Below are positions 1-12,420 of a stretch of DNA of 12,420 nt, piece by piece. Location: the IMG/VR virus record IMGVR_UViG_2617270975_000005. One strand, 5' to 3'. The notes under the pieces were generated by a model that worked only from the letters and a program-made list of their open reading frames with translations, was not told the DNA's origin and searched no databases. The position numbers and the translations under genes were made by a program. How positions within the stretch are numbered: position 1 is the stretch's first letter; each line of letters begins with the position of its first letter. This DNA comes from a virus. Its lineage: Duplodnaviria > Heunggongvirae > Uroviricota > Caudoviricetes.

Positions 1-35
1 GATTTAGTGTATGATGGTGTTTTTGAGGTGCTCCA

Positions 36-311
36 GTGGCTTCTGTTTCTATCAGCTGTCCCTCCTGTTCAGCTACTGACGGGGTGGTGCGTAACGGCAA
101 AAGCACCGCCGGACATCAGCGCTATCTCTGCTCTCACTGCCGTAAAACATGGCAACTGCAGTTCACTTACACCGCTTCTCAACCCGGTACGCACCAGAAA
201 ATCATTGATATGGCCATGAATGGCGTTGGATGCCGGGCAACAGCCCGCATTATGGGCGTTGGCCTCAACACGATTTTACGTCACTTAAAAAACTCAGGCC
301 GCAGTCGGTAA
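36..311 (+). CDS. insA: IS1 InsA (small DNA-binding transposition inhibitor, N-terminal Cys-rich zinc-finger-like region), GTG start
   Basis: 91-aa [25 protein letters not shown]...LKNSGRSR matches InsA as I recall it, with a C-x2-C...C-x2-C motif. Start codon is GTG at 36. Confidence 0.93.
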
Positions 312-733
312 CCTCGCGCATACAGCCGGGCAGTGACGTCATCGTCTGCGCGGAAATGGACGAACAGTGGGGATACGTCGGGGCTAAATCGCGCCAGCGC
401 TGGCTGTTTTACGCGTATGACAGGCTCCGGAAGACGGTTGTTGCGCACGTATTCGGTGAACGCACTATGGCGACGCTGGGGCGTCTTATGAGCCTGCTGT
501 CACCCTTTGACGTGGTGATATGGATGACGGATGGCTGGCCGCTGTATGAATCCCGCCTGAAGGGAAAGCTGCACGTAATCAGCAAGCGATATACGCAGCG
601 AATTGAGCGGCATAACCTGAATCTGAGGCAGCACCTGGCACGGCTGGGACGGAAGTCGCTGTCGTTCTCAAAATCGGTGGAGCTGCATGACAAAGTCATC
701 GGGCATTATCTGAACATAAAACACTATCAATAA
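230..733 (+). CDS. insB: IS1 InsB reading frame; expected to be expressed mainly as the InsAB' transposase fusion by -1 frameshifting from insA
   Basis: 167-aa [19 protein letters not shown]...HYLNIKHYQ matches InsB as I recall it. It overlaps the insA 3' end in the -1 frame. Confidence 0.9.
287..293 (+). other. A6C slippery heptamer (AAAAAAC) for programmed -1 ribosomal frameshift, insA to insB
   Basis: AAAAAAC lies in the insA frame (codons TTA AAA AAC) inside the insA/insB overlap, just upstream of the insA stop at 309-311. This is the position described for IS1 frameshifting. Confidence 0.8.
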
Positions 734-750
734 GTTGGAGTCATTACCTA

Positions 751-776: not shown

Positions 777-1067
777 GCCATTACAAAAGCCACTTCCTAC
801 AGAGTGGCTTTGATAATGGTTTATACCCTACACGGGATAACTTAACTGATATCCCTTTTAAAGGATAAAGGTATTCAAGCCTGACACATCATGCGCTGTA
901 TCGTCGCCGTATTCCCGTATTAACAGAGACCGTAGCCCGACGGGGAACTCCTTCTGCGCGAGTGTGCGGGAATAATCAAAAACGATGCACACCGGGGTTA
1001 CCGGGTACACATATTTCATCATGCCAGCGAGTCCGGTTCTGGCACGGAAGAAACCGGACGTTATGAT

Positions 1068-1478
1068 TTAGTGCGGAAATATTTGTGTAGTGTTCTGAAT
1101 GTTCTCAGTAAAGAGTAATGAATTATCAAAGGTATAGTAATACCTTTTGTTTTCGTGGATATTTGTAATCCATCTGAAAACCCCTGCTGTAGCAAGATTT
1201 TTCCTGTATTCGTAAAATGATAACTCTCCTGATTTGAATCCTTTTAAGGTGGCTTCTATAAGGCATTTATTTTTTGAAAATCTTACATTTACAACCTTAC
1301 CCTGTCCTTTTATTAAAACCGTATTATCGTTTTCAAGAACAAGATGAATATTCTCTGTAGCTAAATAGTAAATGTAATGTGAGACATTGTGACGTTTTAG
1401 TTCAGAATAAAACCAGTGATAGTTTAAATTATTTCGCACTTTATCGAATATTTGTTTAAAAATGGCAACCTGAGCCAT
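1068..1478 (-). CDS. Hypothetical prophage accessory (moron) protein, 136 aa, AT-rich; possibly a YbcV/DUF1398-like protein (identity unverified)
   Basis: Six-frame ORF 1068-1493 on the minus strand. I place the start at the second in-frame ATG (1478) because GGAAGG lies 7 nt upstream, whereas the first ATG (1493) has no Shine-Dalgarno. G+C is about 30% by hand count, against more than 50% in the flanking phage genes. It is co-oriented with the upstream 77-aa ORF, about 55 bp apart. Confidence 0.6.
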
Positions 1479-1534
1479 TGTAGTACCTTCCATGTGATAT
1501 GAGGGGCGTAGTCTGCACGATTATCTAAATTGCT

Positions 1535-1768
1535 TCAATCTGGTCTGATCTGTTTTCTGAGCAATTCAGTAATGTCACTCTTTTCTTTGTTTGCTTCAGG
1601 AGAAACTCTTTTTTCTGAGCACAGTCTCCGGCGGCAGGCTTCAATGACCCAGGCTGAGAAATTCCCGGACCCTTTTTGATCAAGAGCGATGTTAATTTGT
1701 TCAATCATTTGGTTAGGAAAGCGGATGTTGCGGATTGTTGTTCTGCGGGTTCTGTTCTTCGTTGACAT
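1535..1768 (-). CDS. Small basic protein, 77 aa, with probable ribbon-helix-helix-type DNA-binding N-terminus; possibly YlcI/DUF3950-like (identity unverified)
   Basis: ORF MSTKNRTRRTTIRNIRFPNQMIEQINIALDQKGSGNFSAWVIEACRRRL... has a basic N-terminus and a strand/helix pattern that suggests an RHH fold. GGGA lies about 8 nt upstream of the ATG. It sits immediately left of cos, divergent from nu1. Confidence 0.6.
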   Translation of the reverse strand: MSTKNRTRRTTIRNIRFPNQMIEQINIALDQKGSGNFSAWVIEACRRRLCSEKRVSPEANKEKSDITELLRKQIRPD

Positions 1769-1934
1769 GAGGTTGTCCCGTATTTAGTGTCGCTGATTTG
1801 TATTGTCTGAAGTTGTTTTTACGTTAAGTTGATGCAGATCAATTAATATGATACCTGCGTCATAATTGATTATTTGACGTGGTTTGATGGCGTAGATGCA
1901 CGTTGTGACATGCAGATGATAATTATTATCATTT

Positions 1935-2140
1935 TGCGGGTCCTTTCCGGCGATCCGACAGGTTACGGGGCGGCGACCTCGCGGGTTTTCGCTATTTATG
2001 AAAATTTTCCGGTTTAAGGTGTTTCCGTTCTTCTTCGTCGTAACTTAATGTTTTTATTTAAAATACCCCCTGAAAAGAAAGGAAACGACAGGTGCTGAAA
2101 GCGAGCTTTTTGGCCTCTGTCGTTTCCTTTCTCTGTTTTT
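1935..2140 (+). promoter_or_regulatory. cos: Phage cos site (cosQ - cosN - cosB): terminase recognition and cutting region
   Basis: Contains ...ATCCGACAGGTTACG|GGGCGGCGACCTCGCGGGTTTTCGCTATTTATG..., the lambda right-end/left-end junction as I recall it. Followed by three GTTTCC-type repeats at about 2020-2035, 2075-2090 (inverted) and 2118-2133, which I read as R3, R2 and R1, with an A/T-rich stretch between R3 and R2 in the position of the IHF site. nu1 starts 189 bp after the cohesive-end start. Confidence 0.9.
1968..1979 (+). other. cosN: cosN 12-nt cohesive-end sequence GGGCGGCGACCT (staggered nick region)
   Basis: Exact 12-mer that I recognise as the lambda cohesive end, preceded by GGTTACG. 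Confidence 0.88.
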
Positions 2141-2156
2141 GTCCGTGGAATGAACA

Positions 2157-2676
2157 ATGGAAGTCAACAAAAAGCAGCTGGCTGACATTTTCGGTGCGAG
2201 TATCCGTACCATTCAGAACTGGCAGGAACAGGGAATGCCCGTTCTGCGAGGCGGTGGCAAGGGTAATGAGGTGCTTTATGACTCTGCCGCCGTCATAAAA
2301 TGGTATGCCAAAAGGGATGCTGAAATTGAGAACGAAAAGCTGCGCCGGGAGGTTGAAGAACTGCGGCAGGCCAGCGAGGCAGATCTCCAGCCAGGGACTA
2401 TTGAGTACGAACGCCATCGACTTACGCGTGCGCAGGCCGACGCACAGGAACTGAAGAATGCCAGAGACTCCGCTGAAGTGGTGGAAACCGCATTCTGTAC
2501 TTTCGTGCTGTCGCGGATCGCAGGTGAAATTGCCAGTATTCTCGACGGGATCCCCCTGTCGGTGCAGCGGCGTTTTCCGGAACTGGAAAACCGACATGTT
2601 GATTTCCTGAAACGGGATATCATCAAAGCCATGAACAAAGCAGCCGCGCTGGATGAACTGATACCGGGGTTGCTGA

Positions 2677-2702
<26 letters not shown>
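2157..2702 (+). CDS. nu1: Terminase small subunit (cosB-binding, winged-HTH N-terminus)
   Basis: 181-aa ORF MEVNKKQLADIFGASIRTIQNWQEQGMPVLRGGGKG... is near-identical to lambda Nu1 as I recall it. Correct distance from cos; 3' end overlaps the A start by 26 nt. Confidence 0.97.
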
Positions 2703-6383
<3,681 letters not shown>

Positions 6384-6403
<20 letters not shown>

Positions 6404-7703
6404 TCTCCCGCATATTGCCAGTATGGCCTTTAATGAGCCGCTGATGCTTGAACCCGCCTATGCGCGGGTTTTCTTTTGTGCGCTTGCAGGCCAGCTTGGG
6501 ATCAGCCGCCTGACGGATGCGGTGTCCGGCGACAGCCTGACTGCCGGAGAGGCACCCGCGGCGCTGGCGTTATCCGTTGATGATGACGGACCACGACAGG
6601 CCCGCAGTTATCAGGTCATGAACGGCATCGCCGTGCTGCCGGTGTCCGGCACGCTGGTCAGCCGGACGCGGGCGCTGCAGCCGTATTCGGGGATGACCGG
6701 TTACAACGGCATTATCGCCCGTCTGCAACAGGCTGCCAGCGATCCGATGGTGGACGGCATTCTGCTGGATATGGACACACCGGGCGGGATGGTGGCGGGA
6801 GCATTTGACTGTGCTGACATCATCGCCCGTGTGCGAGACATAAAACCGGTATGGGCGCTGGCCAACGACATGAACTGCAGTGCAGGTCAGCTGCTTGCCA
6901 GCGCCGCCTCCCGGCGTCTGGTCACGCAGACCGCCCGGACAGGCTCCATCGGCGTCATGATGGCTCACAGTAATTACGGTGCTGCGCTGGAGAAACAGGG
7001 CGTGGAAATCACGCTGATTTACAGCGGCAGCCATAAGGTGGATGGCAACCCCTACAGCCATCTACCGGATGATGTCCGGGAAACACTGCAGTCCCGGATG
7101 GATGCAACCCGCCGGATGTTTGCACAGAAGGTGTCGGCATATACCGGCCTGTCCGTGCAGGCTGTGCTGGATACCGAGGCTGCAGTGTACAGCGGTCAGG
7201 AGGCCATTGATGCCGGACTGGCTGATGAACTTGTGAACAGTACCGATGCGATCACCGTCATGCGTGATGCACTGGATGCACGTAAATCCCGTCTCTCAGG
7301 AGGGCGAATGACCAAAGAGACTCAATCAACAACTGTTTCAGCCACTGCTTCGCAGGCTGACGTTACTGGCGTGGTGCAAGCGACGGAGGGCGAGAACGCC
7401 AGCGCTGCGCAGCCGGACGTGAACGCGCAGATCACCGCAGCGGTTGCGGCAGAAAACAGTCGCATTATGGGGATCCTCAACTGTGAGGAGGCTCACGGAC
7501 GCGAAGAACAGGCATGCGTGCTGGCCGAAACCCCCGGTATGACCGTGGAAACGGCCCGCCGTATTCTGGCCGCAGCACCACAGAGTGCACAGGCGCGCAG
7601 TGACACTGCGCTGGATCGTCTGATGCAGGGGGCACCGGCACCGCTGGCTGCAGGTAACCCGGCATCTGATGCCGTTAACGATTTGCTGAACACACCAGTG
7701 TAA
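6384..7703 (+). CDS. C: Prohead protease / minor capsid protein C (S49 ClpP-like family), GTG start
   Basis: The six-frame ORF starts at 6249, but the lambda-like protein begins VTAELRNLPHIASMAFNEPLM at GTG 6384, preceded by GAGGAGGAG. That start gives 439 aa, the lambda gpC length, and overlaps the B 3' end by 20 nt. Confidence 0.93.
7098..7703 (+). CDS. nu3: Scaffolding protein Nu3, nested in-frame in the 3' third of C (shared stop)
   Basis: In-frame ATG at 7098 gives MDATRRMFAQKVSAYTGLSVQ..., 201 aa, matching lambda Nu3 and its nested arrangement. Confidence 0.85.
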   Translation: MDATRRMFAQKVSAYTGLSVQAVLDTEAAVYSGQEAIDAGLADELVNSTDAITVMRDALDARKSRLSGGRMTKETQSTTVSATASQADVTGVVQATEGENASAAQPDVNAQITAAVAAENSRIMGILNCEEAHGREEQACVLAETPGMTVETARRILAAAPQSAQARSDTALDRLMQGAPAPLAAGNPASDAVNDLLNTPV

Positions 7704-7712
7704 GGGATGTTT

Positions 7713-8045
7713 ATGACGAGCAAAGAAACCTTTACCCATTACCAGCCGCTGGGCAACAGTGACCCGGCACATACGGCAACCGCGCCCGGCGGATTGAGTG
7801 CGAAAGCGCCTGCAATGACCCCGCTGATGCTGGATACCTCCACCCGTAAGCTGGTTGCGTGGGATGGCACCACCGACGGTGCTGCCGTTGGCATTCTGGC
7901 GGTTGATGCTGACCAGACCAGCACCACGCTGACGTTCTACAAGTCCGGCACGTTCCGTTATGAGGATGTGCTCTGGCCGGAGGCTGCCAGCGACGAGACG
8001 AAAAAACGGACCGCGTTTGCCGGAACGGCAATCAGCATCGTTTAA
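7713..8045 (+). CDS. D: Head decoration protein D
   Basis: [43 protein letters not shown]...; 110 aa from ATG 7713 with AAGGGA upstream. The ORF track begins two codons earlier at 7707. Matches lambda gpD. Confidence 0.95.
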
Positions 8046-8063
8046 CTTTACCCTTCATCACTA

Positions 8064-8087
8064 AAGGCCGCCTGTGCGGCTTTTTTT
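8064..8087 (+). terminator. Stem-loop with T-tract in the D-E intergenic region (intrinsic terminator-like or RNA-stability/processing element)
   Basis: AAGCCGC-CTGT-GCGGCTT followed by TTTTTTT: a 5-bp G/C stem extended by A-T pairs, 4-nt loop, U-run, lying between the D stop (8045) and the E start (8101). Confidence 0.5.
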
Positions 8088-8100
8088 ACGGGATTTTTTT

Positions 8101-9126
8101 ATGTCGATGTACACAACCGCCCAGCTGCTGGCGGCAAATGAGCAGAAATTTAAGTTTGATCCGCTGTTTCTGCGTCTCTTTTTCCGTGAGAGCTATCCCT
8201 TCACTACGGAGAAAGTCTATCTCTCACAAATTCCGGGACTGGTAAACATGGCGCTGTACGTTTCGCCGATTGTTTCCGGTGAGGTTATCCGTTCCCGTGG
8301 CGGCTCCACCTCTGAATTTACGCCGGGATATGTCAAACCCAAGCATGAAGTGAATCCGCAGATGACCCTGCGTCGCCTGCCGGATGAAGATCCGCAGAAT
8401 CTGGCGGACCCGGCTTACCGCCGCCGTCGCATCATCCTGCAGAACATGCGTGACGAAGAGCTGGCCATTGCTCAGGTCGAAGAGATGCAGGCAGTTTCTG
8501 CCGTGCTCAAGGGCAAATACACCATGACCGGTGAAGCCTTCGATCCGGTTGAGGTGGATATGGGCCGCAGTGCGGCGAACAACATCACGCAGTCCGGCGG
8601 CACGGAGTGGAGCAAGCGTGACAAGTCCACGTATGACCCGACCGACGATATCGAAGCCTACGCGCTGAACGCCAGCGGAGTGGTGAATATCATCGTGTTT
8701 GATCCGAAAGGCTGGGCGCTGTTCCGTTCCTTCAAAGCCGTCAAGGAGAAGCTGGATACCCGTCGCGGCTCTCATTCCGAGCTGGAGACAGCGGTGAAAG
8801 ACCTGGGTAAAGCGGTGTCCTATAAGGGGATGTATGGCGATGTGGCCATCGTCGTGTATTCCGGACAGTACGTGGAAAACGGCGTCAAAAAGAACTTCCT
8901 GCCGGACAACACGATGGTGCTGGGTAACACTCATGCACGCGGTCTGCGCACCTATGGCTGTATTCAGGATGCGGATGCATTGAGTGAGGGTATTAATGCG
9001 TCTCCCCGTTATCCGAAAAACTGGAAGACATCCGGCGATCCGGCGCGAGAGTTCACCATGATTCAGTCAGCACCGCTGATGCTGCTGGCTGATCCTGATG
9101 AGTTCGTGTCCGTTCAACTGGCGTAA
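8101..9126 (+). CDS. E: Major capsid protein E
   Basis: MSMYTTAQLLAANEQKFKFDPLFLRLFFRESYPFTTEKVYLSQIPGL...; 341 aa from ATG 8101, the lambda gpE length. The ORF-track start at 8074 is a GTG inside the upstream hairpin and is rejected. Confidence 0.96.
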   Translation: MSMYTTAQLLAANEQKFKFDPLFLRLFFRESYPFTTEKVYLSQIPGLVNMALYVSPIVSGEVIRSRGGSTSEFTPGYVKPKHEVNPQMTLRRLPDEDPQNLADPAYRRRRIILQNMRDEELAIAQVEEMQAVSAVLKGKYTMTGEAFDPVEVDMGRSAANNITQSGGTEWSKRDKSTYDPTDDIEAYALNASGVVNIIVFDPKGWALFRSFKAVKEKLDTRRGSHSELETAVKDLGKAVSYKGMYGDVAIVVYSGQYVENGVKKNFLPDNTMVLGNTHARGLRTYGCIQDADALSEGINASPRYPKNWKTSGDPAREFTMIQSAPLMLLADPDEFVSVQLA

Positions 9127-9167
9127 TCATGGCCCTTCGGGGCCATTGTTTCTCTGTGGAGGAGTCC

Positions 9168-9563
9168 ATGACGAAAGATGAACTGATTGCCCGTCTCCGC
9201 TCGCTGGGTGAACAACTGAACCGTGATATCAGCCTGACGGGGACGAAAGAAGAACTGGCGCTCCGTGTGGCAGAGCTGGAAGAAGAGCTTGATGACACGG
9301 GCGACACTGCCGATCAGGATACCCCTCTCAGCCCGGAAAATGTGCTGACCGGACATGAAAATGAGGTTGTATCAGCGCAGCCGGATACCGTGACTGATAC
9401 GGCTGATCTGGTCACGGTTGTGGCACTGGTGACGCTGCATACTGATGCACTTCACGCCACGCGGGATGAGGCTGTGGCATTTGTGCTGCCGGGAACGGCG
9501 TTCCGTGTCTCTGCCGGTGTGGCAGCTGAAATGACAGAGCGCGGCCTGGCCAGAATGCAATAA
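9168..9563 (+). CDS. FI: DNA packaging / head assembly protein FI
   Basis: MTKDELIARLRSLGEQLNRD... from ATG 9168 with GGAGGAG upstream; 131 aa. Lambda-like, but with clustered substitutions and one codon fewer than the lambda FI I recall. Confidence 0.9.
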   Translation: MTKDELIARLRSLGEQLNRDISLTGTKEELALRVAELEEELDDTGDTADQDTPLSPENVLTGHENEVVSAQPDTVTDTADLVTVVALVTLHTDALHATRDEAVAFVLPGTAFRVSAGVAAEMTERGLARMQ

Positions 9564-9574
9564 CGGGAGGCGCT

Positions 9575-9928
9575 GTGGCTGATTTCGATAACCTGTTCGA
9601 TGCTGCCATTGCCTGCGCCGATGAAACGATACGCGGGTACATGGGAACGTCAGCCACCATGACATCCGGTGAGCAGTCCGGTGCTGTGATACGTGGTGTT
9701 TTTGATGACCCTGAAAATATCAGCTATGCCGGACAGGGCGTGCGCGTTGAAGGCTCCAGCCCGTCCCTGTTTGTCCGGACTGATGATGTGCGGCAGCTGC
9801 GGCGCGGCGACACGCTGACCATCGGTGAGGAAAACTTCTGGATAGACCGGATTTCGCCGGATGATGGCGGAAGCTGTCATCTCTGGCTTGGGCGGGGCGT
9901 ACCGCCTGCCGTTAACCGTCGCCGCTGA
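9575..9928 (+). CDS. FII: Head-tail connector / head completion protein FII (GTG start)
   Basis: 117-aa ORF MADFDNLFDAAIACADETIRGYMGTSATMTSGEQSG... matches lambda gpFII. Start-codon identity (GTG) is inferred from lambda; my hand count of that line was off by one, so I rely on the ORF-track coordinate. Confidence 0.95.
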   Translation: MADFDNLFDAAIACADETIRGYMGTSATMTSGEQSGAVIRGVFDDPENISYAGQGVRVEGSSPSLFVRTDDVRQLRRGDTLTIGEENFWIDRISPDDGGSCHLWLGRGVPPAVNRRR

Positions 9929-9939
9929 AAGGGGGATGT

Positions 9940-10518
9940 ATGGCCATAAAAGGTCTTGAGCAGGCCGTTGAAAACCTCAGCCGTATCAGCAGAACGGCGG
10001 TGCCCGGTGCCGCCGCAATGGCCATTAACCGCGTTGCTTCATCCGCGATATCGCAGTCGGTGGCACAGGTTGCCCGTGAGACAAAGGTACGCCGGAAACT
10101 GGTAAAGGAAAGGGCCAGGCTGAAAAGGGCCACGGTCAAAAATCCGCAGGCCAGAATCAGGGTTAATCGGGGGGATTTGCCCGTAATCAAGCTGGGTAAC
10201 GCGCGGGTTGTCCTTTCCCGCCGCAGACGTCGTAAAAAGGGGCAGCGTTCATCCCTGAAAGGTGGCGGCAGCGTGCTTGTGGTGGGAAACCGTCGTATTC
10301 CCGGCGCGTTTATTCAGCAACTGAAAAATGGCCGGTGGCATGTCATGCAGCGTGTGGCCGGGAAAAACCGTTACCCCATTGATGTGGTGAAAATCCCGAT
10401 GGCGGTGCCGCTTACCACGGCGTTTAAACAGAATATTGAACGGATACGGCGTGAACGTCTTCCGAAAGAGCTGGGCTATGCGCTGCAGCATCAACTGAGA
10501 ATGGTAATAAAGCGATGA
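9940..10518 (+). CDS. Z: Tail completion / minor tail protein Z
   Basis: 192-aa ORF MAIKGLEQAVENLSRISRTAVPGAAAMAINRV... matches lambda gpZ in length and sequence. Confidence 0.95.
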   Translation: MAIKGLEQAVENLSRISRTAVPGAAAMAINRVASSAISQSVAQVARETKVRRKLVKERARLKRATVKNPQARIRVNRGDLPVIKLGNARVVLSRRRRRKKGQRSSLKGGGSVLVVGNRRIPGAFIQQLKNGRWHVMQRVAGKNRYPIDVVKIPMAVPLTTAFKQNIERIRRERLPKELGYALQHQLRMVIKR

Positions 10519-10910
10519 AACATACTGAACTCCGTGCAGCCGTACTGGATGCACTGGAGAAGCATGACACCGGGGCGACGCTTTTTGATGGTCGCCCCGC
10601 TGTTTTTGATGAGGCGGATTTTCCGGCAGTTGCCGTTTATCTCACCGGCGCTGAATACACGGGCGAAGAGCTGGACAGCGATACCTGGCAGGCGGAGCTG
10701 CATATCGAAGTTTTCCTGCCTGCTCAGGTGCCGGATTCAGAGCTGGATGCGTGGATGGAGTCCCGGATTTATCCGGTGATGAGCGATATCCCGGCACTGT
10801 CAGATTTGATCACCAGTATGGTGGCCAGCGGCTATGACTACCGGCGCGACGATGATGCGGGCCTGTGGAGTTCAGCCGATCTGACTTATGTCATTACCTA
10901 TGAAATGTGA
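10515..10910 (+). CDS. U: Tail terminator protein U
   Basis: 131-aa [48 protein letters not shown]... matches lambda gpU. ATGA overlap with the Z stop. Confidence 0.95.
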
Positions 10911-10917
10911 GGACGCT

Positions 10918-11049
10918 ATGCCTGTACCAAATCCTACAATGCCGGTGAAAGGTGCCGGGACCACCCTGTGGGTTTATAAGGGGAGCGGTGACCCTTATGC
11001 GAATCCGCTTTCAGACGTTGACTGGTCGCGTCTGGCAAAAGTTAAGTAA
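10918..11049 (+). pseudogene. V: Major tail tube protein V, 5' fragment (43 codons) cut by an IS66-family insertion
   Basis: [43 protein letters not shown] matches the lambda gpV N-terminus, which is about 246 aa. It then runs into a stop supplied by the IS terminus (GTAA); downstream sequence is IS66-family, not V. Confidence 0.88.
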
Positions 11050-11098
11050 CCGGCTCATTTAAACCGTCTGGTCTGTTTCCTCCGGCTCTACAAAAATA

Positions 11099-11776
11099 AT
11101 GTCCATCATTTTTAATGGACACTATCGTATGAAACACCGGACCTGGATCACTGAAGCTTTACGTCTTCACTTTGAAGAACATTTACCCCGGGTTGTGGCC
11201 GGGCGTCGCCTGGGTGTACCAAAATCAACAGTTTGTAGTATGTTCGTGCGCTTTCGGAGAGCTGGCCTTTCGTGGCCTTTGCCCGCAGGCATGTCGGAGC
11301 AGGAACTTGATGCCTGCCTTTACGGACAATTTTCCACGGTACCAGTCGTACGTCCTGAAAGCACCGTTATATCCGAAGCCCCCGTGGTAAAAAAACGTCC
11401 CCGGCGGCCCAACTTCCCTTATGAGTTTAAAATCGCCTTAGTGGAGCAGTCACTGCAGCCCGGAGCCTGTGTGGCGCAGATCGCCCGGGAAAACGGAATC
11501 AACGATAACCTGCTCTTCAACTGGCGCCATCAATACCGGAAAGGTGGCCTGCTGCCTTCCGGAAAAAATATGCCGGCACTGCTTCCCGTGACGTTAACGC
11601 CGGAGCCGGATAATAAAATCCCGGCCCCCGCACAGGAACCAGAGCAGATAAATACACCGTCCGACAGTCTGTGTTGTGAGCTGGTTCTGCCGGCCGGAAC
11701 TCTCAGGCTTAAAGGTAAACTGACGCCGGCGTTATTACAGACACTTATCCGCGAAATAAAAGGGAGCAGCCACTGA
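11099..11776 (+). CDS. tnpA: IS66-family orf1 (TnpA-like accessory HTH protein); start uncertain (ATG 11099 or ATG 11129)
   Basis: The C-terminal part ...RRPNFPYEFKIALVEQSLQPGACVAQIARENGINDNLLFNWRHQYRKGG... has the HTH motif typical of IS66 Orf1 and IS3 OrfA proteins. Its stop overlaps the orf2 start (TGATG). Neither candidate start has a strong Shine-Dalgarno. Confidence 0.8.
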   Translation: MSIIFNGHYRMKHRTWITEALRLHFEEHLPRVVAGRRLGVPKSTVCSMFVRFRRAGLSWPLPAGMSEQELDACLYGQFSTVPVVRPESTVISEAPVVKKRPRRPNFPYEFKIALVEQSLQPGACVAQIARENGINDNLLFNWRHQYRKGGLLPSGKNMPALLPVTLTPEPDNKIPAPAQEPEQINTPSDSLCCELVLPAGTLRLKGKLTPALLQTLIREIKGSSH

Positions 11777-12123
11777 TGATATCTCTCCCTGCAGGTTCGC
11801 GTATCTGGCTGGTTGCAGGTATCACCGATATGCGAAATGGCTTTAACGGCCTGGCATCAAAAGTTCAGAACGTCCTGAAGGATGACCCGTTCTCCGGACA
11901 CCTGTTCATCTTCCGCGGACGCCGGGGTGACCAGATAAAAGTGTTGTGGGCTGACAGTGACGGACTGTGCCTCTTCACCAAACGCCTGGAGCGGGGCCGC
12001 TTCGTCTGGCCAGTCACCCGTGACGGCAAGGTGCACCTTACTCCGGCTCAGTTATCCATGCTTCTTGAAGGTATCAACTGGAAGCACCCGAAACGAACGG
12101 AACGCGCTGGAATCCGCATATAA
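11776..12123 (+). CDS. tnpB: IS66-family orf2 (TnpB accessory protein)
   Basis: 115-aa ORF MISLPAGSRIWLVAGITDMRNGFNGLASKVQNVLKDDPFSGHLFIFRGRRGDQIKVLWADSDGLCLFTKRLERGRFVWP... is the conserved IS66 Orf2 family pattern. Confidence 0.9.
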   Translation: MISLPAGSRIWLVAGITDMRNGFNGLASKVQNVLKDDPFSGHLFIFRGRRGDQIKVLWADSDGLCLFTKRLERGRFVWPVTRDGKVHLTPAQLSMLLEGINWKHPKRTERAGIRI

Positions 12124-12142
12124 CCCGTTGTAAAGTGAGGAT

Positions 12143-12420
12143 ATGGACACCTCACTTGCTCATGAGAACGCCCGCCTGCGGGCACTGTTGCAGACGCAAC
12201 AGGACACCATCCGCCAGATGGCTGAATACAACCGCCTGCTCTCACAGCGGGTGGCGGCTTATGCTTCCGAAATCAACCGGCTGAAGGCGCTGGTTGCGAA
12301 ACTGCAACGTATGCAGTTCGGTAAAAGCTCAGAAAAACTTCGTGCAAAAACCGAACGGCAGATACAGGAAGCACAGGAGCGAATCAGCGCACTTCAGGAA
12401 GAAATGGCGGAAACGCTGGG
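12143..12420 (+). CDS. tnpC: IS66-family transposase TnpC, N-terminal ~92 codons (3' end outside window)
   Basis: MDTSLAHENARLRALLQTQQDTIRQMAEYNRLLSQRVAAYASEINRLKALVAKLQRMQFGKSSEKLRAKTERQIQEAQERISALQEEMAETL: heptad-like Leu/Ala-rich N-terminus typical of IS66 transposases. GAGG lies just upstream. The ORF is open to the window end. Confidence 0.85.
   Translation, partial: MDTSLAHENARLRALLQTQQDTIRQMAEYNRLLSQRVAAYASEINRLKALVAKLQRMQFGKSSEKLRAKTERQIQEAQERISALQEEMAETL

Follow-up and report, generated by a model that had tools for sequence, protein, structure and literature searches.

What kind of unit is formed by the two small genes that lie next to the cohesive-end site (cos) in the Caudoviricetes record IMGVR_UViG_2617270975_000005? 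The whole stretch analysed here (12,420 nucleotides, hereafter the window) carries them between an IS1 element and cos, at positions 1068-1768, both on the minus strand, in the same orientation and divergent from the terminase gene nu1, just as an earlier reading made from the sequence alone (the sequence-only reading) had described. That reading had placed the genes in a slot for non-essential morons and had implied that they might form an antitoxin-toxin or repressor-effector pair. We find that the genes, which correspond to ynfO and ydfO of Escherichia coli, are two separable accessory genes and not a pair of the toxin-antitoxin style; taken as a whole, the region is probably an accessory segment of the Qin type, in which a DUF3950 gene for a probable small regulator is joined by an optional DUF1398 cargo gene.

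Both products were readily assigned to families. The 136-aa product of the downstream gene matches PF07166 (DUF1398) with 147 bits (cut-off 22) over positions 1-119 of the 119-position profile, and it matches the solved nuclear magnetic resonance structure of E. coli YdfO (PDB 2HH8) at 1.4e-69, which assigns it to the 2HH8 fold. The 77-aa product of the upstream gene matches PF13132 (DUF3950; 74.7 bits, cut-off 25, 5.3e-21) and the NCBIfam model NF041551, YlcI_YnfO_N (35.7 bits, cut-off 30). By these matches, the suspected kinship with the prophage proteins YlcI (DUF3950) and YbcV (DUF1398) was correct. The layout of the window is, we take it from the K-12 map, that of ynfO-ydfO in the Qin prophage. 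A study of the regulator PdhR lists 'ynfO > ydfO < gnsB' in K-12, in accord with the Qin layout (PMC7660256). Of 5426 complete E. coli genomes, 4893 match the 1.4-kb segment at least partly (2491 of them over at least 80% of it), as do, again at least partly, 240 phage records including lambda. Both families are thus already catalogued (in RefSeq, Pfam and NCBIfam, with one solved structure, and in lambda, K-12 and most E. coli) but not understood: a literature search found no established function for either DUF1398 or DUF3950.

The sequence-only reading had described an AT-rich cassette with a downstream gene of about 30% G+C, and had taken this as a sign of separate acquisition. Marked AT-richness is in fact limited to the DUF1398 gene, whose G+C content of 0.311 compares with 0.529 in nu1, 0.542 in A and 0.563 over positions 2157-12420 (the head region); the 77-aa gene, at 0.436, is not strongly AT-rich. 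The foreign composition of the downstream gene is confirmed. The proposal of a non-essential moron slot is also borne out: the segment lies between the lysis genes and cos and is oriented against the late operon. In their independent orientation and, for DUF1398, atypical composition, the genes are like the lambda morons bor and lom, which are non-essential, antisense or independent in the late region, and atypical in composition; bor and lom encode envelope proteins with known phenotypes, whereas the DUF1398 and DUF3950 proteins have no N-terminal hydrophobic stretch visible by eye. The window itself has no bor. Lambdoid phages have a non-essential accessory segment at their right genome end, between the lysis genes and cos, and the region would be its Qin-type (ynfO-ydfO) form. 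Such a segment would be transcribed leftward, antisense to the late pR' transcript; any expression would therefore need one or more promoters of its own and would take place in the lysogen or early in infection.

The two genes occur separately in both directions. Using tblastn, DUF3950 was found in 154 phage records and DUF1398 in 43. Among 80 viral contigs sampled with the BP-4795-type DUF3950 protein as seed (the second of two such samples), about 55 carried DUF3950 without DUF1398: roughly 38 contigs combined HNH-TerS-TerL packaging genes with no DUF1398 and about 14 had Nu1 and no DUF1398, with about 24 carrying both Nu1 and DUF1398. DUF3950 lay antisense between Rz and the first packaging gene in 80 of 80 sampled viral contigs, Nu1/A and HNH-TerS-TerL types alike. 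YnfO/YlcI would accordingly be read as the constant element of the lysis-cos junction, and YdfO/YbcV as optional AT-rich cargo, probably a cytoplasmic 16-kDa protein. Conversely, distant DUF1398 homologues (25-60% identity) are solitary in Kluyvera, Pseudocitrobacter, Salmonella enterica diarizonae and Raoultella, in E. coli as ycgX beside bluR, and on two metagenome or read-assembly contigs; neither a DUF3950 nor a Nu1 gene turned up in the 4 kb around the genomic loci, none was called within 5 kb on the two contigs, and the neighbours are ordinary chromosomal genes. The product of ycgX, the third E. coli DUF1398 paralogue (L022, 4001-4405), is 44% identical to the window protein, and its gene, flanked by bluR on one side and the e14 prophage remnant (mcrA, pinE) on the other, is solitary. 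Solitary DUF1398 genes, together with DUF3950 genes that mostly lack DUF1398, argue against a toxin-antitoxin or repressor-effector unit. The two genes do not consistently co-occur across genomes, an outcome that the sequence-only reading had itself named beforehand as speaking against its proposal.

The DUF3950 protein is conserved where the surrounding DNA is not. Its first 50 residues are almost invariant over all phage contexts, and across 38 distinct alleles the N-terminal domain shows a mean pS of 0.36 (maximum 0.80) with a mean pN of 0.062 (pN/pS 0.17); high pS combined with low pN indicates strong purifying selection on the protein itself. When Nu1-type and HNH-type phages are compared, homology runs from the start codon to about codon 50, after which at least 7 unrelated tails are found, shuffled between the packaging types; the C-terminal tail would be a mosaic addition whose form depends on the DNA that happens to be attached downstream. 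Distant members, 38-50% identical, were retrieved from a Morganella satellite-like element (L193, 4001-4195), arrayed as int-alpA-antA ... icd ... primase, and from an island on a Klebsiella IncL/M plasmid (L194, 3953-4135). They retain the motifs I-R-F-P, I-E-x-I and N-F-S-x-W-V, the first and last of which are invariant even at 38% identity. Each is encoded singly on the opposite strand and diverges from an Icd-like neighbour, and divergence from such a gene or operon in satellite-like elements is a typical repressor position. In agreement with the Morganella element, YlcI/YnfO is listed among the accessory genes of capsid-forming phage-inducible chromosomal islands (cf-PICIs; PMC13612085).

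These features suggest that the 50-residue basic N-terminal domain most likely forms an Arc/Mnt-like ribbon-helix-helix (RHH) dimer and would bind DNA as a small transcription regulator. The basic N-terminus recorded in the sequence-only reading is pronounced (pI 11.5 over residues 1-50, 10.6 for the whole protein). An AlphaFold2 monomer model of the 77-aa protein has an extended basic N-terminus followed by helices at residues 19-32, 34-51 and 60-73; in RHH proteins the strand pairs only in the dimer. The segment R-N-I-R-F-P aligns with F-N-L-R-W-P of Arc and F-N-F-R-M-P of Mnt, both sequences having been checked against the PDB, and it is this N-x-R-aromatic-P register that hhalign chose. 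Like DUF3950, the Arc and Mnt proteins of P22 are small and come from a phage accessory region, and DUF3950 and Arc share the N-terminal strand motif followed by two helices with a G/N-x-S turn. The top Foldseek matches are RHH or RHH-like (a TCP domain, ParD2 and Reg576).

The DUF1398 protein has an orphan fold, an internally duplicated alpha-alpha-beta-beta-beta arrangement, and evolves with a pN/pS of 0.39. Its longest open reading frame (ORF) starts at the first ATG (1493) and runs over 1068..1493(-), giving 141 aa; ATG 1478, which yields the 136-aa form, has GGAAGG 7 nt upstream, and the RefSeq annotation of a 99.9% identical locus uses the same 136-aa start. The protein is rich in Asn (11%), Lys (8.1%) and Tyr (7.4%), as had been noted, and reading the sequence by eye revealed neither an N-terminal hydrophobic stretch nor a catalytic motif, the latter again in line with the sequence-only reading. 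Conserved charge was considered as a hint of nucleic-acid binding and rejected, as the pI ranges from 5.8 to 9.7 across homologues. A PADLOC scan of both proteins returned no defence-system match (DUF1398 hit Csx23 only at chance level, E 0.025; DUF3950 gave nothing), a BFVD fold search yielded nothing useful, and DUF1398 showed no fold similarity to capsid, envelope, toxin or known anti-defence proteins. With low confidence, we regard DUF1398 as a binding protein rather than an enzyme; it would most likely act through a partner.

Several results weigh against this assignment of roles. The monomer model of DUF3950 reaches a pLDDT of only 69.5. Its alignment with Arc and Mnt by hhalign has an E of 0.13, or 0.035 once the distant members are added (P 0.035), all Foldseek matches are weak (E 4.8-10), PDB profile searches with the DUF3950 alignments gave no RHH match and lenient Pfam scans not even a weak one; none of the RHH tests by Foldseek, PDB profiles or hhalign is significant. 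DUF3950 thus differs from Arc and Mnt in having no statistically significant sequence or fold match and no identified operator. The region upstream of the gene is conserved among Nu1-type phages and unrelated in HNH-type phages, so that a near-invariant putative DNA-binding domain has no shared upstream operator; such an operator was considered and rejected for this reason. The YnfO-type tail has DUF1398 directly downstream in 104 of 105 cases, which is compatible with a tail-DUF1398 contact, although physical linkage would explain it equally well. Finally, no positive sign points to what DUF1398 might bind, and its charge is not conserved. RHH is the most likely fold of the N-terminal domain, plausible but unproven.

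Local DNA elements offer some candidates for regulation (Table 1). The tail-coding part of the DUF3950 gene contains a 15-nt direct repeat whose copies lie 58 nt apart, are read in two different frames and are kept in Qin-type loci; none of 200 shuffles had two matches. The copies may be an operator pair. A PdhR-like box overlaps the proximal copy; some 25 nt downstream of it follows a -10-like GATAAT, and the box and the GATAAT together could constitute an internal, regulated DUF1398 promoter. A consensus promoter scan found no site meeting its criteria on the minus strand, and promoter-like sites in the region are no more numerous than in shuffles. The promoter of the DUF3950 gene presumably lies between its start and cosN. 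In the Stx-type phage BP-4795 (L110, 3094-3728) only 41 nt separate the DUF3950 start codon from the beginning of a divergent HNH endonuclease gene, so that in Stx-type phages the DUF3950 promoter must fall inside the HNH coding sequence.

Published work on the K-12 homologues bears on the regulation of the DUF1398 gene. Genomic SELEX (systematic evolution of ligands by exponential enrichment) located PdhR sites in ynfO/ydfO as well as in the ybcV-ybcW interval, and ybcV mRNA was down 10-fold in a pdhR mutant (PMC7660256). Expression of T4 MotB, which interferes with H-NS, raised ybcV and ybcW more than 1000-fold (PMC7827196), an ionic liquid strongly induced ydfO (PMC4077768), and K-12 RNA-seq recorded a convergent overlap of transcription at ybcW-ylcI (PMC12288877). 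By analogy with K-12 ybcV, H-NS-type silencing would probably keep the expression of a ydfO-type gene low, and host regulators, PdhR among them, would modulate it. The assertion that overexpressed YdfO confers oxidative-stress resistance (PMC4077768) was discarded as a mis-citation: the cited PMC3105296 has yfdO (CPS-53), never ydfO.

Comparison with lambda shows what else the slot may hold. Lambda, DE3, HK629 and DLP12 share both genes with the window, in lambda and DLP12 in the same slot between Rz/bor and cos, with DUF1398 76% identical and the DUF3950 N-terminal domain about 93% identical; the DUF3950 tail is different and shorter there (64 aa in total, against 77 aa for the YnfO type of the window). 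All four carry about 0.5 kb of extra DNA between the genes, namely ybcW/lambdap79 on the opposite strand, which is absent from the window. The DUF1398 gene of lambda, lambdap78, was scored non-essential in a screen by CRISPR interference (PMC10695390). It is annotated with 177 aa (L002, 2675-3208), against a conserved DUF1398 length of about 136 aa, and the extra 41 or so codons at its N-terminus are probably an over-call. Its labels 'putative envelope protein' and 'head protein' (PHROG 413) were rejected as inherited, given the lack of an N-terminal hydrophobic stretch by eye, the solitary chromosomal members and the lack of capsid or envelope fold similarity. Lambda also has an intact 64-aa DUF3950 ORF of YlcI type, whose ATG lies some 190 bp inside the right end (tblastn match at 48139-48303 (-) of NC_001416); this lambda-type ORF (in DE3: L002, 3742-3936) bears no annotation in NC_001416, the DE3 record and several other lambda records. 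Many contigs of about 3.5 kb (about 3.4-3.6 kb in ENA) and 'plasmids' that carry lambda ybcV, ybcW and ylcI are assigned to unrelated organisms (Staphylococcus, Acinetobacter, Xanthomonas, Klebsiella); these look like contamination with lambda control DNA, probably the nanopore 3.6-kb control strand.

The gene that separates the two families in lambda also leads to the most interesting alternative reading of the slot, a role in conflicts between phages and between phage and host. The exchangeable cos-adjacent genes (DUF1398, ybcW/lambdap79 and others) would then serve in superinfection exclusion or counter-defence, or be sensed by host defence, with DUF3950 as the regulator of the slot; we judge this unlikely. 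The right end of lambda DNA is the first to leave the capsid, what follows DUF3950 is strongly mosaic, with no fewer than 7 types of tail and cargo, and of the 5426 complete E. coli genomes 4184 have DUF3950 but only 2009 have ybcW. The antisense position is moron-like (PMC7067206). Furthermore, lambdap79 activates the Vulcan NADase defence, and lambda-vir escapers delete lambdap79 and remain viable, a loss for which the authors proposed recombination with Qin (preprint, bioRxiv 10.64898/2026.09.04.749371); Qin, the proposed donor, carries the layout of this window. Set against this are the absence of any PADLOC match or of fold similarity to known anti-defence proteins, and the solitary chromosomal DUF1398 genes in non-phage contexts. 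In a fuller and still more doubtful form, DUF3950 would be an Arc-like antisense 'resident regulator' both at the cos-proximal junction and opposite the icd operon of PICI-like satellites, the DNA behind it an exchangeable phage-conflict slot, ynfO-ydfO a natural 'trigger-less' allele without lambdap79, and DUF1398 an exclusion or counter-defence protein of new fold.

A toxin-antitoxin or repressor-effector pair, in which an RHH-type YnfO would autoregulate the operon and neutralise or control the DUF1398 protein through its C-terminal tail, is disfavoured and in our estimation improbable. The arrangement resembles RHH-antitoxin type II modules such as ParD-ParE in that a small basic, possibly RHH protein is encoded directly upstream of a larger one, co-oriented and only 41 nt away, and ParD2 is among the weak fold matches of DUF3950. 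The YnfO-type tail, with its predicted helix 60-73, occurs almost only together with DUF1398, and DUF1398 lies directly downstream in 79 of 80 near-identical YnfO-type viral contigs, with a gap of 16-44 nt to the longest DUF1398 ORF in 79 of 80; these 80 near-identical contigs are not independent observations. Unlike in ParD-ParE-type modules, pairing is not obligate: most phage contexts have DUF3950 alone, DUF1398 stands without DUF3950 within 4-5 kb in several genera and as ycgX, and the opposite-strand ybcW/lambdap79 separates the genes in lambda and DLP12. A DUF1398 toxin in need of a DUF3950 antitoxin is hard to reconcile with this separate occurrence. Neither protein resembles any toxin, antitoxin or defence family, the downstream protein included. 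Two apparent DUF3950-DUF1398 fusions were set aside, both judged from the protein and not from the contig: P0014 (233 aa), which has Trp at the position of the TGA stop of the window and then continues in frame, is probably a gene-calling artefact, and P0010 (177 aa) is a truncated, mis-joined call.

An accessory role at cos or in packaging is improbable to much the same degree. The DUF3950 protein would in that case bind near cos and modulate terminase access, leaky nu1-A expression in the lysogen, or interactions with cos-using satellites. In both of two unrelated packaging systems, DUF3950 is invariably the gene closest to where the packaging module starts, members of the family occur in capsid-forming PICI satellites (PMC13612085), and a promoter-like GTGACA-16-TATCAT at 1905-1932 (+), with 10 of 12 matches, is directed through cos into nu1. 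The DNA from the DUF3950 gene to the packaging genes is, on the other side, unrelated in the two phage types. Lambda cos requires only cosQ, cosN and cosB together with terminase and integration host factor. Escapers with the proposed Qin exchange of the segment are viable (bioRxiv 10.64898/2026.09.04.749371), and in satellites DUF3950 adjoins icd and antA, not packaging genes. Very improbable, finally, is conservation at the level of DNA or RNA instead of protein, with incidental ORFs in what would be a recombination linker or a transcript antisense to the late mRNA: the genes are antisense to the late operon, a late-region antisense RNA of a Salmonella prophage mediates exclusion (PMC7067206), the mosaic joints fall exactly at the ends of the conserved 150 nt and the 15-nt repeat is read in two frames, but pS reaches 0.8 while the protein is kept, members only 38% identical share motifs, an Rfam scan of the whole window found no RNA family, and DUF1398 has a solved protein structure.

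The coordinates of the segment and its surroundings are collected in Table 1. The complete E. coli genome that matches the window best does so at 97-98% identity. The position of cosN in the window is homologous to the position annotated as the cos site in phage DE3. The IS1 element, cut at its left end by the window edge, ends 320 bp past the 3' end of the DUF1398 gene and occupies the place of the end of the lysis cassette in intact relatives; given this position, the prophage copy may be disrupted upstream. A 54-aa ORF between IS1 and the DUF1398 gene (858-1022 (-)) had no match in Pfam, NCBIfam, PHROG or PADLOC and has no annotation at this place in the RefSeq relative; it is probably not a gene.

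Table 1. Coordinates of the Qin-type accessory segment and of neighbouring features in the window
Feature	Position	Strand	Remarks
DUF1398 gene (YdfO/YbcV family)	1068..1478	-	136 aa
DUF3950 gene (YlcI/YnfO family)	1535..1768	-	77 aa; basic N-domain residues 1-50, YnfO-type C-terminal tail
Spacer between the genes	1479..1534	-	DUF3950 stop to ATG 1493, 41 nt; to ATG 1478, 56 nt; contains the SD-like GGAAGG
15-nt direct repeat TGCTCAGAAAA[C/A]AGA	1549-1563 and 1607-1621	-	inside the DUF3950 tail-coding part
PdhR-like box AACAGATCAGACCAGAT	1554-1538	-	one base off the K-12 ynfO/ydfO SELEX site (PMC7660256)
-10-like GATAAT	1525-1520	-	in the spacer, shortly ahead of the DUF1398 start
Region upstream of the DUF3950 gene, as far as cosN	1769..1967	-	includes right-end terminal sequence with cosQ
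cosN, 12-nt cohesive end GGGCGGCGACCT	1968..1979	+	exact match; context, outside the cassette
cosB R-repeats, three	2021-2032, 2075-2086, 2122-2132		
nu1 (terminase small subunit)	2157..2702	+	divergent neighbour; Pfam Phage_Nu1, 4.5e-100
A	2677-4602		right of nu1
IS1	1..748		InsA frame 36-311, InsB frame 230-733; window starts inside the element

With both genes already annotated, common in E. coli and present in lambda, the finding adds little as it stands. What it offers is a clearer framing of an old gap in the best-studied phage, whose reference record lacks the cos-adjacent DUF3950 gene, and the recognition that the DUF3950 N-terminal domain is strongly conserved across different packaging machines and satellites, is separable from DUF1398 and has in lambdap79 a neighbour that is sensed by defence. 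Should DUF3950 prove to bind DNA and thereby regulate an exchangeable conflict slot, this would account for a feature that is very common among enterobacterial prophages.

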